IMG/VR virus record: IMGVR_UViG_3300019758_000009
Location: 1 to 64,000 of that record
Direction: 5' to 3' (one strand)
DNA from: a virus
Length of the DNA: 64,000 nucleotides
Under the pieces are notes generated by a model. It did not search any database and was not told the DNA's origin. It worked only from the letters and a program-made list of their open reading frames with translations. Shown here one piece after another: positions 2,372-31,671 of the stretch (position 1 is its first letter; each line of letters starts with the position of its first letter). Made by a program: the position numbers and the translations under genes.

Positions 2372-2746
2372 CTATTCAATATCTATATTTGGGGCAATTA
2401 CAGAAGGTTTAAATATTACTCTGTACTGCCCTGTGCTTACATGATCAGGCTGTAGTTGTTCTGAAAAATAAGTAACGTTATCGGAAAGCCCTAAATTATG
2501 CTTTAAAAAGCTTCCATCTTTCATTTTTACCAAAACAACCAATTGCCCCCCAGTATTACTAATAGAGCAGTACCCTTCAACTTGCAAAATATACTTGTCT
2601 GTTATACCGTTGTAAAATACAACTCTTCTGTAAATTTCAAACTGATCTGCTGCCTGCCTTAAATTACTCGACGCAACATCGGCATCTGTACAACTTGTAA
2701 TTGTCAAGCTAATTAAAGCCACTAATAGAATTAATACTTTTTTCAT
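2372..2746 (-). CDS. conserved phage lipoprotein
   Basis: Signal peptide and lipobox (ITS-C); ADVASSNL...FEIYRRVVFYNGITDKY motif of a widespread phage family. Confidence 0.75.
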   Translation of the reverse strand: MKKVLILLVALISLTITSCTDADVASSNLRQAADQFEIYRRVVFYNGITDKYILQVEGYCSISNTGGQLVVLVKMKDGSFLKHNLGLSDNVTYFSEQLQPDHVSTGQYRVIFKPSVIAPNIDIE

Positions 2747-2754
2747 CTTGTTTT

Positions 2755-3105
2755 TTATTTTAAATTGGGTTCATATTTTGCCACTATTTCAGCCTTACCC
2801 GCTTCACCTTCATCATACTTTTGCACAACTAATGCACCGTATTTTGAGCCTATCACAACCTTACTGGGTTCAATGTCGTACTGTTCGGCAATTGAGATAA
2901 TAAAACGGTGGGTAGCACGTTGTAAATGTAGCCCGCTGCTTCTTTGGGTTACATCATTCGCTAAGTCTCTAATGATATTATCAAGATCTTTTAGGTCGTC
3001 TGTAAAGTTTTCTAGGGCTACCTTGTTGCAGTTACCTTTAGCTGCACCTATGCTGCTGTCAAGCTCTTCTCTAAATTGCTCAAGTCTATATTTTAAGTCG
3101 TTCAT
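2755..3105 (-). CDS. hypothetical protein
   Basis: 116-aa ORF with A-rich leader. Confidence 0.65.
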   Translation of the reverse strand: MNDLKYRLEQFREELDSSIGAAKGNCNKVALENFTDDLKDLDNIIRDLANDVTQRSSGLHLQRATHRFIISIAEQYDIEPSKVVIGSKYGALVVQKYDEGEAGKAEIVAKYEPNLK

Positions 3106-22798: not shown

Positions 22799-24100
22799 AT
22801 GCCAGAAATAAAATCAAAAGACTTTTCTACCGCCGACAACCCAGTAGTCGGAATGGATGAGGCCACCCTGCATTCGGTGTACAAGACTTCAAAGAAAGTC
22901 ATACAGGAGTATGTAAGGGAAATAGAACGACACAATAGATACAAAACGGCCAGAGCAGATTTTTCTACGAAGGTAATTATGGATAACCGCGCGGCCCTAA
23001 TCGATCTTTACGAGGCATGCATGCAGCAGGATGCCCATATGAAAAGCGTTATTGAGACATTAGAATCTCAGGTTCTCGGAGAGCGCTATATGATGGCCAG
23101 ACAAACTCAAAGTGGCCAATATGTCAAAAATATTGACGAAACGAAGAAAATTCAAGGCACCCAGTTCATAAAAATAATTAAAGGCATCCTAGAGTCGAAG
23201 CTTTATGGTTATACGTTGATCGAGCTAGGAAGAGGCACTCATCCTATTACAGGGAAATTGACTGATGTAAAACTTGTTGAAAGGAGAAACGTGTTAGCGG
23301 ACCAGCATTACGTTGTGAAACGCCAAGGTCAGTACTACCCAGGGTGGGATATAAATGAACCAGCTTATGTTGATGATTATGTTCTGGTAAAAAATGATGA
23401 TCTGGGTATGTTCTCAGCAACCACTCCGCTTATACTCGCGAAGAAATTCACATTCGCTAATTACGTTAGCTTTGCACAAACGTACGGCCAGCCAATAATT
23501 CAAGGAAAAACAGCCGATGAGGGCACTACGGCCAGGCAACAATTGGCAAATGAAATTGCCACGGCCTCAGCTCAGCGGATAATTGTTACCGGCCTACAAG
23601 ATGAGTTAAGTGTTCACGCTTTAGCTATGTCTAATTCAGAAAAGATATACACAAGTTTGGTGGATATGGTAAATGCTGAAGTTTCAAACTTAGTCTTAGG
23701 GTCAGAATCTATGGCTGGAGCTACACAGAGTTATGTTGGATCATCCAATGCCCATCAGGATATATTCAGAGATAGAATTGAGGTTTATCGTGAATACATT
23801 GAGAACATAATGAATGAAGAGATAATTCCAAGACTTGTTAAGAAAGGCATGCTTGAGCCTGGCAATGAATTTAAATACGCCAACAAACTTGAGATGTCTA
23901 ACGAGGACCGGATCAAACTTTACAACTTCATAACCGACAAATACAATGTTACTCCTGAAGAAATAGAAAAAGAATTTGGTATAGTCGTTGGTTCCCAGTT
24001 CAACGCGGCAATCGCTGCTGCTACTAACGAAAACCAAAAGCCAGCCACAACGAAATTGAAAAAAGTTGAGGCCAAGGTAAATTTTCTGACGAGGAAGTAG
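22799..24100 (+). CDS. portal protein (Mu gp29/DUF935-like)
   Basis: DLYEACMQQDAH, LYGYTLIEL, FAQTYGQP, NAEVSNLVLG motifs; first gene of the head module. Confidence 0.85.
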   Translation: MPEIKSKDFSTADNPVVGMDEATLHSVYKTSKKVIQEYVREIERHNRYKTARADFSTKVIMDNRAALIDLYEACMQQDAHMKSVIETLESQVLGERYMMARQTQSGQYVKNIDETKKIQGTQFIKIIKGILESKLYGYTLIELGRGTHPITGKLTDVKLVERRNVLADQHYVVKRQGQYYPGWDINEPAYVDDYVLVKNDDLGMFSATTPLILAKKFTFANYVSFAQTYGQPIIQGKTADEGTTARQQLANEIATASAQRIIVTGLQDELSVHALAMSNSEKIYTSLVDMVNAEVSNLVLGSESMAGATQSYVGSSNAHQDIFRDRIEVYREYIENIMNEEIIPRLVKKGMLEPGNEFKYANKLEMSNEDRIKLYNFITDKYNVTPEEIEKEFGIVVGSQFNAAIAAATNENQKPATTKLKKVEAKVNFLTRK

Positions 24101-24159
24101 ACGGGTCTACTGCTTCCTCTATTGAATCGATCACAGCCAAGATCTCAGATTTTTACAAT

Positions 24160-25014
24160 GTGCAGGCTGAAGCATCGAAAAATGACCTTGATGGAATAAA
24201 GGACATCACAAACGACGAGTACGTTACCTTATTAGCTATTTTAAGAGGGTTTTTAGAGGATTTCTATAACAATCCATCTCTATATATGACCCATACAGAA
24301 TTAATGGAACAGAGGGCTGTATTCGCTCTTAATCATGCATTCAATGGTTACGGGTTATCTTTTGAGAGAGCTATGAACATCGTGAAGCTTGAAAATAACG
24401 ACGGTTTAACGGATATCCAAATCGAAGAACGGGACATGCTTATAGGCCTGATAGATAACATCATAAACTTCTCGGTTGCCGCTGAGCATCAAACGTTAAT
24501 GAGTATATCTGAAGACAGAGAAAAGTCTGTAGATATGGAAGAATTTATGATTACGGCCATCAATACATTTTCCAAATACAACAAGACTTACGCAGGTATT
24601 GAGAATGAAGATATTTTCTTTGCATTAGGATTGGCAGCTGAATGGCTTAGGTTCGATGCTGAAACGATACTTCAATTCACAACTCAAGGCGATGAGAGAG
24701 TAAGGGATTCTCACAACGCCATAAATGGGCTAAGATACAGGAAGAAGGACTTCCCAGCTGCTTTGATACCCCCAATTGACCATGGGTGCAGGTGCTATTT
24801 GATTGATACAGGATCGACCGATGGTCGCAAGCTTACTAATAAGCCGAATGTATCAAAACTAATAGACGACGCTACAAACCCAGCCTTTAAATACAACGTG
24901 GCCACTTCTGGCCAAATGTTTGGTGAAGACCATCCGTATTTTGAGATTGGTAGCTCATATTTATCTATACTGGGAGCTACGGTGACCAAGATAAAAAGCA
25001 ACTTAGGTTTATGA
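24160..25014 (+). CDS. head morphogenesis protein (Mu gpF / SPP1 gp7-like); probably also made as a -1 frameshift fusion to portal
   Basis: TQGDERVRDSH...PPIDHGCRC motif; frame open back through the slippery site at 24079. Confidence 0.85.
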   Translation: MQAEASKNDLDGIKDITNDEYVTLLAILRGFLEDFYNNPSLYMTHTELMEQRAVFALNHAFNGYGLSFERAMNIVKLENNDGLTDIQIEERDMLIGLIDNIINFSVAAEHQTLMSISEDREKSVDMEEFMITAINTFSKYNKTYAGIENEDIFFALGLAAEWLRFDAETILQFTTQGDERVRDSHNAINGLRYRKKDFPAALIPPIDHGCRCYLIDTGSTDGRKLTNKPNVSKLIDDATNPAFKYNVATSGQMFGEDHPYFEIGSSYLSILGATVTKIKSNLGL

Positions 25015-26163: not shown

Positions 26164-26228
26164 CTTTGTAAACTATTTGCAATAAGCGTATCTATTATTA
26201 AATATAAAAACACTATAAATATTTGCCG

Positions 26229-27548
26229 ATGGATATAAAGAAATTCCAATTTATCGAAGGCAGTATCGCGACAGGTGAAGTAGCGACTATTAGATTTTTT
26301 GATTCTGTTGACGCATGGTCAGTAAGTTCGTTTGTTGACGAATTTCATTGGCTTGAGAATTATGTAAAACCTTCAAAAATTAAGATCCTAATCAATTCAG
26401 AGGGTGGGTCAGTTTTAAGAGGTATGGGGGCGTTCTCCGCTATCATAAACTCAGAGGTACCAACAGAAACAATTGTCGAGGGTCTTGCAGCATCTATGGG
26501 ATCTGTCCTATTGGCAGCTGGTGGCGTAGCTAAAATGCGCGACTACGGTATTATTATGCTTCATAATCCATTTGGGGGTAATGACCCAAATGATCCAATG
26601 GTCCTGGCTTTTAAAGACCAGTTGAAGGTAATCTATAAAAAACGATGGGGGTTCAGCGATGAACGTATCACTGAAATTATGGATGGCCCAGAGGATGCGG
26701 ATGGGACATATATGAATGCTGAAGCTGCTGTCGAATATGGTATAATGCATCAGGACAATGTAATACAAACTCCACTACAGGATAAAGAGTCGATACTAGC
26801 TAAACTAGACACTTCAAACTCAACTGTTAATTACGGAGAGGTATTTTCATGCTCATGCCCTGTTAACTCAAACATTAAACCATCTCTTGATAATTTATCT
26901 AATATTAAGAGTGAAGGGAATACAGTTCCCAATGATAACAATAATAACCAACAAAATTCCAACACTATGGAAAACAATTTTGAAGCGGTAGTAGCTACTC
27001 TTGAATTAGCTAAGAATTCTACTCCAGCTGATGTTATGGCTAAAATTGTTGCTTTGAATAAAGTTGAAGCAAAAGTAGCAGCCTTAACTCAGGATAATGC
27101 AACCCTAACTCAGGATAATGCAGACCTTGTAATTGCTAAAACAGGATTACAAACAAGCCTAGAAACAGTAACTGGTCAGTTAACCGACAAAGAGACTGAG
27201 CTTACTTCGGTAAAAGCAGAATTGCAGGCTTTTCAAGATGAAAAGATCGCCAAAGTAAAAGCTGAGCAAGAGGCCGTTATTGACGACGCGATCAAAGCAG
27301 GTAAAATCAAAGCTGAATCCAAAGATCAGTGGGTATCTATGGCCAACATGAATTTCGACACTGTAAAATCTACCTTAGATTCTATGCCAGGTAAAACTGT
27401 TATTTCTCAAGAGATTGTAGCAGACGCTGGATCAACATTCGTAAGCGAGGGTGGGGTACAGCTAACAGACGAAGAGGTAAAAGCTAAAGAGCATGCCGAT
27501 AAAATCAAAGCAGTGGTTGGCGATATCACATACACAAAATTAGCTTAA
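26229..27548 (+). CDS. ClpP-type prohead protease fused to coiled-coil scaffold
   Basis: INSEGGSV, EGLAASMGS (Ser), IMLHNP (His), YMNAEAAVEYG; C-terminal coiled coil. Confidence 0.9.
   Translation: MDIKKFQFIEGSIATGEVATIRFFDSVDAWSVSSFVDEFHWLENYVKPSKIKILINSEGGSVLRGMGAFSAIINSEVPTETIVEGLAASMGSVLLAAGGVAKMRDYGIIMLHNPFGGNDPNDPMVLAFKDQLKVIYKKRWGFSDERITEIMDGPEDADGTYMNAEAAVEYGIMHQDNVIQTPLQDKESILAKLDTSNSTVNYGEVFSCSCPVNSNIKPSLDNLSNIKSEGNTVPNDNNNNQQNSNTMENNFEAVVATLELAKNSTPADVMAKIVALNKVEAKVAALTQDNATLTQDNADLVIAKTGLQTSLETVTGQLTDKETELTSVKAELQAFQDEKIAKVKAEQEAVIDDAIKAGKIKAESKDQWVSMANMNFDTVKSTLDSMPGKTVISQEIVADAGSTFVSEGGVQLTDEEVKAKEHADKIKAVVGDITYTKLA
26967..27548 (+). CDS. nested in-frame scaffold protein (internal start)
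   Basis: In-frame ATG after an A-rich leader; internal late promoter AACCA-N16-CTAATATTAA at 26878-26908. Confidence 0.6.
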   Translation: MENNFEAVVATLELAKNSTPADVMAKIVALNKVEAKVAALTQDNATLTQDNADLVIAKTGLQTSLETVTGQLTDKETELTSVKAELQAFQDEKIAKVKAEQEAVIDDAIKAGKIKAESKDQWVSMANMNFDTVKSTLDSMPGKTVISQEIVADAGSTFVSEGGVQLTDEEVKAKEHADKIKAVVGDITYTKLA

Positions 27549-31053: not shown

Positions 31054-31446
31054 ATGGCAGAATTTAATGAAGACCAAGAGCAGGAGCTATTGATTAGCGC
31101 CTCATTGCAAAAAGACATCAAAGCTAAAGTAGAAGAGCTACAAAAGGTAAAGAAAGTAAAAAAGGTATTCCCTATTGCCGTAGAAGGTGACGAGGATGAC
31201 GAGAAAGACCTTTACGTCGCGTACTTTAAAGAGCCTACGTTCGCAGATTTCTCGAAGTTCACAGCTATGGGAAAATCAAACGAAACTCAGGCCTTACGCC
31301 AATTAGGCCGTGACTGCTTGCTGGATGGCGACAAAGAATTACTTGATGACGACTCATTATTCCTATTTGGATTAATGCCTCAGTTATCATCTATTGTTAG
31401 ATTCAGAAGAAGTCGAATCGTAAATTTATCAAAAGCTGGGAAGTAA
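31054..31446 (+). CDS. tail assembly chaperone (G)
   Basis: Between tube and tape measure; ends just after slippery heptamer AAATTTA. Confidence 0.8.
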   Translation: MAEFNEDQEQELLISASLQKDIKAKVEELQKVKKVKKVFPIAVEGDEDDEKDLYVAYFKEPTFADFSKFTAMGKSNETQALRQLGRDCLLDGDKELLDDDSLFLFGLMPQLSSIVRFRRSRIVNLSKAGK

Positions 31447-31613: not shown

Positions 31614-31640
31614 CACCATAGCGCTTGCACTAGTAAGTAT

Positions 31641-31671
31641 AAAAGCCTCACAGTTCTGTGGGGCTTTTTTT
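31641..31671 (+). terminator. intrinsic terminator after the chaperone extension
   Basis: AAGCCTCACAG / CTGTGGGGCTT followed by a T-run. Confidence 0.8.

Follow-up and report, generated by a model that had tools for sequence, protein, structure and literature searches.

In lambda and most long-tailed phages, the tail assembly chaperone pair G/GT is made by a −1 ribosomal frameshift (Levin et al., 1993; Xu, Hendrix and Duda, 2004, as cited in PMC8008677 and PMC7302621). In the head of SPP1, gp7, a member of the MuF family, binds the portal protein and thereby enters the procapsid in few copies (PMC6316719), and in Microbacterium phages of clusters EA3, EA5, EA8 and EB portal and MuF are encoded in-frame by one gene (PMC7302621). 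Slippery heptamers of the form A_AA.U_UU.U belong to the H_HH.U_UU.Y class, which is among the most efficient −1 motifs in E. coli when combined with a pseudoknot (Sharma et al., PMC4066793). Here we analyze the junction between a Mu-type portal gene and the gene of a MuF-like minor head protein (F) in a 64,000-nucleotide (nt) stretch of viral DNA, IMGVR_UViG_3300019758_000009, from a microbial-mat metagenome (the window). Comparative sequence data make it very likely that a canonical programmed −1 frameshift at this junction produces a 738-amino-acid (aa) portal-MuF fusion in a fraction of the portal subunits. The frameshift is of a canonical kind; what is new is the gene pair and the purpose proposed for it. 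The elements of the junction are as follows, with the kind of evidence in brackets.

22799 to 24100, + strand: portal gene of Mu type, zero frame, 433 aa (open reading frame (ORF) list; Pfam Portal_Mu PF06074)
24079 to 24085, + strand: slippery heptamer A_AAU_UUU, in phase with the portal frame as X_XXY_YYZ (sequence; identical in relatives)
24086 to 24090, + strand: 5-nt spacer CUGAC (sequence)
24091 to 24119, + strand: putative stimulatory stem-loop with 5' arm 24091-24100, 9-nt loop 24101-24109 and 3' arm 24110-24119 (ViennaRNA fold; covariation in relatives)
24079 to 25014, + strand: MuF/SPP1 gp7-like minor head protein ORF, −1 frame, 311 codons counted from the heptamer, ending at TAA 25012-14 (Pfam Phage_Mu_F; AlphaFold2 fold match)
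24085 to 24189, + strand: −1-frame transframe linker (SDEEVDGSTASSIESITAKISDFYNVQAEASKNDL...), of variable sequence and with predicted disorder (alignment; AlphaFold2)
24140 to 24145, + strand: AGAUCU, weak candidate for the 3' arm of a pairing with loop GGGUCU at 24103-24108 (complementarity)
24160 to 24162, + strand: GTG, the one canonical codon at which a free F might start early; its use as a start is not conserved (ORF list)

The 3' end of the portal ORF reads GTA AAT TTT CTG ACG AGG AAG TAG. An earlier note on this DNA, made by a reader of the letters alone, had described an in-frame heptamer A AAU UUU followed, after five nucleotides, by a strong hairpin, and had called this arrangement a canonical −1 signal. 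Sequence and phase agree with that description, and every part of the canonical anatomy can be recognized. The 47-nt segment containing the hairpin has a predicted energy of −14.9 kcal/mol, as against −8.1 ± 2.1 for shuffled sequences (z −3.2; 0/200 shuffles as good). In the ViennaRNA fold, ten base pairs join 24091-24100 to 24110-24119, and the portal stop TAG (24098-24100) sits within the 5' arm; the inner pairing TAGA/TCTA proposed in the note is an alternative on the same coordinates. The −1 frame is free of stops from 24070 (after TGA 24067-69) to TAA 25012-14, including the whole segment from 24079 into the F ORF that the note had given as open, and GTG 24160, which it had named as the only early start for F, is the sole ATG, GTG or TTG before codon 69 of this frame. 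The predicted slip product comprises 429 portal residues plus 309, and its 738 aa, beside the 433-aa portal, match the length that had been estimated. At the predicted junction ...VNF is followed by SDEEVDG... (...VNF and then SDEEVDGSTASSIESITAK), which gives the predicted junction peptide VNFSDEEVDGSTASSIESITAK.

A count of in-phase X_XXW_WWZ heptamers in all stop-to-stop ORFs of at least 100 codons, over the six frames of the window, gave 120 such heptamers. On the + strand, only the portal site and a second site at 31422-31428 are followed by a −1 frame that stays open for at least 60 codons. The second site belongs to the tail chaperone position of the same phage and has a nearly identical heptamer. 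The portal site resembles the tail chaperone G/GT signal in being an X_XXY_YYZ −1 slip near the 3' end of a virion-assembly gene, in the short major and C-terminally extended minor product that are proposed to be made in a fixed ratio, and in the conservation of position rather than of sequence. It differs in the gene pair, here portal and MuF, and in the extension, which amounts to a complete folded protein of 270 aa, encoded by a separate gene in other phages.

Relatives of the junction were collected in several scans. A portal scan of IMG/VR contributed the best 80 of 258 relatives, the portal profile run against species-representative genomes contributed 50 loci, and two further IMG/VR scans were started from distant members; the pooled scans comprise about 225 loci with portals 49-73% identical to the window portal. 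A locus was taken as signal-bearing if AAATTTT occurred in phase, the zero frame reached a stop within 40 nt and the −1 frame contained an ORF of 250 aa or more. By this definition the signal is present in 169 related loci, corresponding to 93 distinct 110-nt junctions, with the in-phase AAATTTT 12-18 nt ahead of the portal stop in the 169 loci. The deepest branch, L126 (49% portal identity), is also signal-bearing. The spacer from the heptamer to the first stem pair is 3-5 nt in most relatives, and the −1 ORF measures 274-311 aa for the first two sets, with their 60 distinct junctions, and 287-308 aa for the further set, except at one truncated locus. The conservation of heptamer, hairpin and frame offset in homologues, which the earlier note had set in advance as a check on its reading, is thus found in 93 distinct junctions.

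The pattern of codon usage at the heptamer is informative. The codon before AAT is GTA, GCA, CTA, GAA, GGA, ACA, TCA, AAA or ATA, so that the amino acid varies and the codon invariably ends in A; all signal-bearing loci have AAT TTT preceded by this third-position A, which is conservation at synonymous sites. Relatives in which F has its own ATG keep Asn-Phe, but as AAC TTC, AAT TTC or AAC TTT, after GCC, GCT, GTG or ACA; they have no hairpin, and their F lies in the +1 or zero frame. Judged by these codons, the own-ATG relatives are a natural control, in which the heptamer is seen to be fixed only where it would be needed, and the comparison indicates that selection acts on the heptamer at the nucleotide level.

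Some loci depart from the common arrangement. In L161-L163, L169, L182, L186, L187, L190-L194 and L043, the sequence A AAT TTT TTG/C/A forms two overlapping slippery heptamers (A_AAT_TTT and T_TTT_TTN). In L023, L046 and L095 the heptamer is lost (TCT TTT or GAT TTT) and the hairpin is kept, with an ATG for F right after the stem and F still in the −1 frame; from this arrangement, an independent start seems to have taken the place of the frameshift. The F homology of L023 is, in addition, split across two frames.

The named genomes are almost all from Bacteroidales (Bacteroides, Phocaeicola, Alistipes, Prevotella, Parabacteroides, Tannerella, Dysgonomonas, Butyricimonas, Muribaculaceae and others), together with two metagenome-assembled genomes labelled Clostridiales and Erysipelotrichaceae. 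The cultured member is the temperate Bacteroides salyersiae phage BS-TP1, whose record lists portal gp45 and MuF gp44 as separate genes; 47 unannotated −1-frame codons lie between the heptamer and the annotated MuF ATG, and frameshifting is not mentioned in the BS-TP1 paper, in which no proteomic data were found either. Prophages with the signal are present, for example, in the strains Phocaeicola coprophilus DSM 18228, Bacteroides gallinarum DSM 18171 and B. oleiciplenus YIT 12058. Only two GenBank phage records have this portal type, and a frameshift is annotated in neither.

The stem is conserved as a structure. In a gapless MAFFT alignment of 27 distinct junctions, 89.6% of the cells of the 10-bp (base pair) stem are paired, compared with 38-61% when one partner is slid. 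This figure is conservative, because the window, L001 and L002 have other loop lengths and were scored as unpaired. Five of the ten stem pairs have changed on both sides (AU/GC, GC/AU, CG/UA/AU), and none of 500 shuffles reaches the observed covariation score. Distant clades carry very different stems in the same place, such as GAGGTGCAT/ATGCACCTC, GGAGAGGGG/CCCCTCTCTCC, GGAAGAGGAA/TTCCTCTTCC and GGAGGAG/CTCCTCC. In many relatives, moreover, 5-7 nt of the hairpin loop could pair with a complementary segment located 15-21 nt past the stem, and the pairs differ by lineage (GGCAG/CTGCC, GGTAG/CTACC, GGCGGC/GCCGCC, TGGTGAC/GTCACCG, CCGGCA/TGCCGG, GGCAACG/CGTTGCC). In a subset of 20 relatives picked post hoc, 77.5% of the cells of this second helix are paired, against 16-42% with a slid partner, and five of seven pairs have changed on both sides. 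Over the 88 parsed junctions, the second-helix pairing beats 95% of shuffles in 22, where about four would be expected. In GC-rich lineages the loop-to-downstream pairing is not above chance, nor is it in the window, where 48% of shuffles do as well. Complementarity of this kind suggests that a pseudoknot is likely to be present in part of the family.

These features recall the pseudoknots of avian infectious bronchitis virus (IBV) type and of IS3 type used as reporters in PMC4066793, with which the junction shares the heptamer, the short spacer and a stem of about 10-11 bp. In the subset of relatives picked post hoc, the apparent pairing of the loop with a segment 15-21 nt downstream would correspond to an H-type topology with a long connecting loop; unlike in the IBV and IS3 cases, the second helix of the window itself does not exceed chance. 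Other candidate roles for the element were considered and rejected. An Rfam search gave no relevant RNA family. No intrinsic terminator is predicted at the hairpin, which is followed by no T-run, and sigma-70-like promoter matches (5, compared with 2.4 ± 1.8 in shuffles) are not above background. The −7 element of Bacteroidetes promoters, TAnnTTTG, is no match either, as at the junction the bases before AAATTTT vary (GCA, GGA, ACA and so on) and the last base is T, not G.

The assignment of the two genes by the earlier note, as portal and Mu gpF-like protein, is borne out by Pfam, marginally for the second. The portal matches Portal_Mu PF06074 over profile positions 2-336 of 336 (E value 2.9e-41; 142.4 bits, cut-off 23.9). 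The F ORF scores 31.0 bits against Phage_Mu_F PF04233 (cut-off 29.6), a marginal match confined to the C-terminal half of the profile; a motif TQGDERVR...LIPPI.H.CRC is conserved in F. An AlphaFold2 model built on 22 −1-frame ORFs (predicted local distance difference test, pLDDT, 84.8) shows a disordered segment of roughly the first 32 residues, corresponding to the transframe linker, and then a helical bundle with a small beta domain. The pLDDT falls below 50 at residues 1-13, 15-17 and 22-32 of the −1 ORF, and columns 10-45 of the linker alignment are variable and gapped. The model matches 'phage head morphogenesis domain' proteins in BFVD (E 2e-8 to 8e-8; template modelling (TM) scores 0.56-0.63). 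It also weakly matches BFVD 'portal' proteins of 738-881 aa (E 1e-3 to 6e-3), namely R9QT34 of HSTV-1 and R4TKY6 of HGTV-1, both haloarchaeal, and A0A6J5N077 (817 aa) of an uncultured phage; by this model comparison, these are probably natural portal-MuF fusions outside Bacteria. Among solved structures, F has no sequence relative in the PDB and no Foldseek match there.

From these elements the following sequence of events can be proposed. As ribosomes translating the portal mRNA arrive at A_AAU_UUU, the P site would contain tRNA-Asn and the A site tRNA-Phe, and the stem-loop starting 5 nt downstream, probably a pseudoknot in some relatives, would resist unwinding. In a fraction of the ribosomes both tRNAs would re-pair one base back (AAA UUU) and translation would go on in the −1 frame. 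Most ribosomes would terminate six codons later and release the 433-aa portal; those that slipped would make the 738-aa product, consisting of portal residues 1-429, a flexible linker of roughly 35 residues and the MuF/gp7-like minor head protein. Since the C-terminus of the portal points into the capsid, the fusion would place MuF inside the procapsid at the portal vertex, in a small number set by the efficiency of the slip; this efficiency would, as the earlier note had also supposed, set the fraction of portal subunits that bear F. The Mu portal gpH is trimmed during maturation, which suggests that the linker might be cut. The occurrence of the slip, its efficiency, its role in stoichiometry and any subsequent cutting of the linker by the prohead protease are inferences.

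The proposed arrangement can be set beside the two described ways of joining MuF to the portal. As in SPP1 gp6-gp7, the gene order is portal and then MuF, and the portal would serve to carry a few copies of a MuF-family protein into the procapsid; the low copy number and portal binding of gp7, which the earlier note had mentioned, are documented (PMC6316719). In SPP1, however, the two are separate proteins that bind non-covalently, whereas a covalent link made by recoding is proposed here from the sequence. With the Microbacterium fusions the product would share one polypeptide containing portal and MuF in the same order, and the existence of those fusions implies that a portal-MuF fusion is compatible with assembly. 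They are constitutive, with MuF on every subunit, and their portals are of a different family; here, the stop codon and the frameshift would fuse only a fraction. The portal frameshift would be an intermediate solution, in which attachment is covalent and is limited to the fraction of subunits set by the slip.

The alternative that survives best holds that F is translated alone, from GTG 24160 in the window and from non-canonical codons or by termination-reinitiation in relatives, that no fusion is made, and that heptamer and hairpin serve translational coupling, mRNA stability or RNase processing. It has some footing, since GTG 24160 is present, the predicted fold starts only about 12 residues after it, and in seven unique relatives an ATG overlaps or closely follows the portal stop (for example, an ATGA overlap in L039 and L072). 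Bacteroidales make little use of Shine-Dalgarno pairing, so that the absence of a ribosome-binding site is uninformative on an independent start of F. The frames and starts of F were counted on 78 unique portal sequences.

Heptamer present (54 portals; F detected in 52): F in the −1 frame in 52/52; before the F homology, no start in 29, GTG or TTG only in 16, ATG in 7
Heptamer absent, F present (15 portals): F in +1 in 10, in the zero frame in 1 and in −1 in 4; ATG start in 14, TTG only in 1
Another gene after the portal (9 portals): frame and start of F not applicable

Fisher tests on these rows give p values of 1e-9 and 1.6e-8, the rows being related and not independent. In the portal tree the signal is found on all major branches, including the deepest, and the own-start state needs about five changes. 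Against independent translation, 29 unique relatives have no ATG, GTG or TTG between the upstream −1-frame stop and the conserved F domain. GTG 24160 is not retained in the closest relatives: in L001-L004 the codon aligned with it is a non-start Val, and the first start is an ATG at codon 55 counted from the heptamer, within the conserved F domain. Members of the widespread L045 family have no start before codon 83. Many loci encode the conserved N-terminal helices of F (EYxxILxxFRRL...LRASFLI) ahead of their first start codon, and no column of the variable linker alignment holds a conserved near-cognate start. An independent start also leaves unexplained both the −1 frame of F in 52/52 and the fixation, at synonymous sites, of AAT TTT with its preceding A only where F is without its own ATG. 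On this evidence translation of F alone is improbable as a full account, although independent initiation may coexist with the fusion in the window, at GTG 24160, or in the seven relatives with an ATG.

A second alternative places the slip in transcription: RNA polymerase would slip on A3T4 and add or delete a base, so that some of the transcripts would have portal and F in a single frame. Phage and insertion sequence (IS) genes offer known cases of transcriptional slippage (PMC5009743), and in many relatives the run is extended to six T (A AAT TTT TTG/C/A). Such slippage depends on no phase and no hairpin, but the motif keeps the X_XXY_YYZ phase throughout and a covarying hairpin is conserved 5 nt downstream. 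Known slippage tracts are longer than T4 or A3, and the window and most relatives have only T4 and A3. Slippage by the polymerase is therefore very improbable. Among the sequencing runs listed as containing this DNA there is no RNA run, and the matching contigs confirm the DNA sequence only. That an assembly or sequencing indel has split one portal-MuF gene, or that F is a start-less pseudogene, is the least credible account: a single-base difference would bring both ORFs into one frame and homopolymer runs are error-prone, but the same −1 offset and zero-frame stop recur in 93 distinct junctions from independent assemblies, isolate genomes and one cultured phage, over 23981-24226 the window has an identical counterpart in a contig of a second study, and the F ORF is intact at 274-311 aa and conserved, so that the comparative data refute artefact and decay for practical purposes.

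Several considerations weigh against the portal-MuF frameshift itself. It is a prediction from sequence. A free F could, in the window, be initiated at GTG 24160, and the seven unique relatives with an ATG at the portal stop indicate that the fusion need not be the only route to F. The independent contrasts between loci with and without the heptamer number only 3-5; all go in the expected direction, and they are too few for significance in a sign test. The natural in-frame fusions that the earlier note had sought in relatives do occur in the Microbacterium phages (PMC7302621), but there is none among the about 225 loci of this portal clade. In a set of 5.8 billion proteins no longer relative of F was scored, which is weak evidence. 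Finally, the hosts of the relatives are mostly Bacteroidales, and the available frameshift efficiencies come from E. coli.

A stronger, joint claim can be formulated. In a large Mu-type clade, MuF would have no start of its own and would be made only as a portal extension, by a frameshift with the help of an IBV-like pseudoknot, the second helix of which would lie in the sequence that codes for the linker; efficiency alone would set how many of the 12 subunits carry MuF, and the prohead protease would later free MuF in the capsid. This combination is put forward tentatively, as a possibility that falls somewhat short of even chances. If true, it would add a third case of conserved recoding in the assembly of tailed-phage virions to the frameshifts of the tail chaperone and of capsid extension.

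The earlier note had named no report of recoding at the portal, and none was found in full-text literature searches of papers open without subscription. The word 'portal' does not occur in the PRFect paper (PMC10885494) or in the first 300,000 characters of the 2016 recoding review (PMC5009743), and portal recoding is absent from the Hankyphage paper. Portal and MuF/gp7 are among the most widespread phage head proteins, and a route to a low MuF copy number is known only for SPP1, by binding. A hard-wired, sub-stoichiometric portal-MuF fusion would, if real, be a new solution to MuF copy number and a new class of conserved recoding in phage structural genes. In other phages, MuF domains also carry toxins into capsids (PMC6316719), and the route by which MuF is loaded consequently bears on cargo delivery. 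There is a practical side as well: in signal-bearing phages, such as BS-TP1 and gut Bacteroidales prophages, gene callers truncate MuF at an internal start or miss 25-80 codons.

The remaining features of the window belong to its Mu-type head module, which is on the + strand, and to the tail chaperone site.

26223 to 27548, + strand: ClpP-type protease fused to a Mu gpI-like scaffold
Head module, + strand: gpG-like virion morphogenesis ORF (weak match)
Head module, + strand: major head candidate
31422 to 31428, + strand: second slippery heptamer, A_AAU_UUA, at the 3' end of the ORF in the tail-chaperone position, 31054-31446 (sequence; gene context)

ORF 31054-31446 is located between the tail tube and the tape measure, in a confirmed context of sheath, tube and tape-measure genes. 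It holds an in-phase GTA AAT TTA, after which the −1 frame is open for 63 codons, to TAA 31611-13. Since 31422-31428 lies at the classical position of the tail chaperone frameshift, the remark of the earlier note that the same GTAAATTT core is used there was correct. The octamer of this core is not rare in the window (8 copies versus 6.1 expected). No strong hairpin follows the heptamer at 31422-31428 (−7.2 kcal/mol, z −0.5), unlike at the portal site with its strong, covarying hairpin. Between the chaperone extension and the tape-measure gene, at 31634-31670 (+), a GC-rich hairpin is followed by a T-run (aaagcctcacagttctgtggggcttttttt), which looks like an intrinsic terminator inside the tail operon.

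Some loci have the same portal family with a different 3' end (L103, L107, L109, L110, L115 and L130; L096 and L106; L044 and L061), and with the window F as query no F homologue was found downstream of these portals. The next ORF begins MRITLEQFCEQW... in the first six and ...KITLDEFCNHW in L096 and L106. On the minus strand of the window, T_TTA_AAA occurs in phase at 2758-2764, 6 nt ahead of the stop of ORF 2755..3105. The next ORF, 2372..2746, is read in the −1 frame of this site, begins with its own ATG and resembles a signal peptide at its start (MKKVLILLVALISLT); this heptamer is probably a coincidence.

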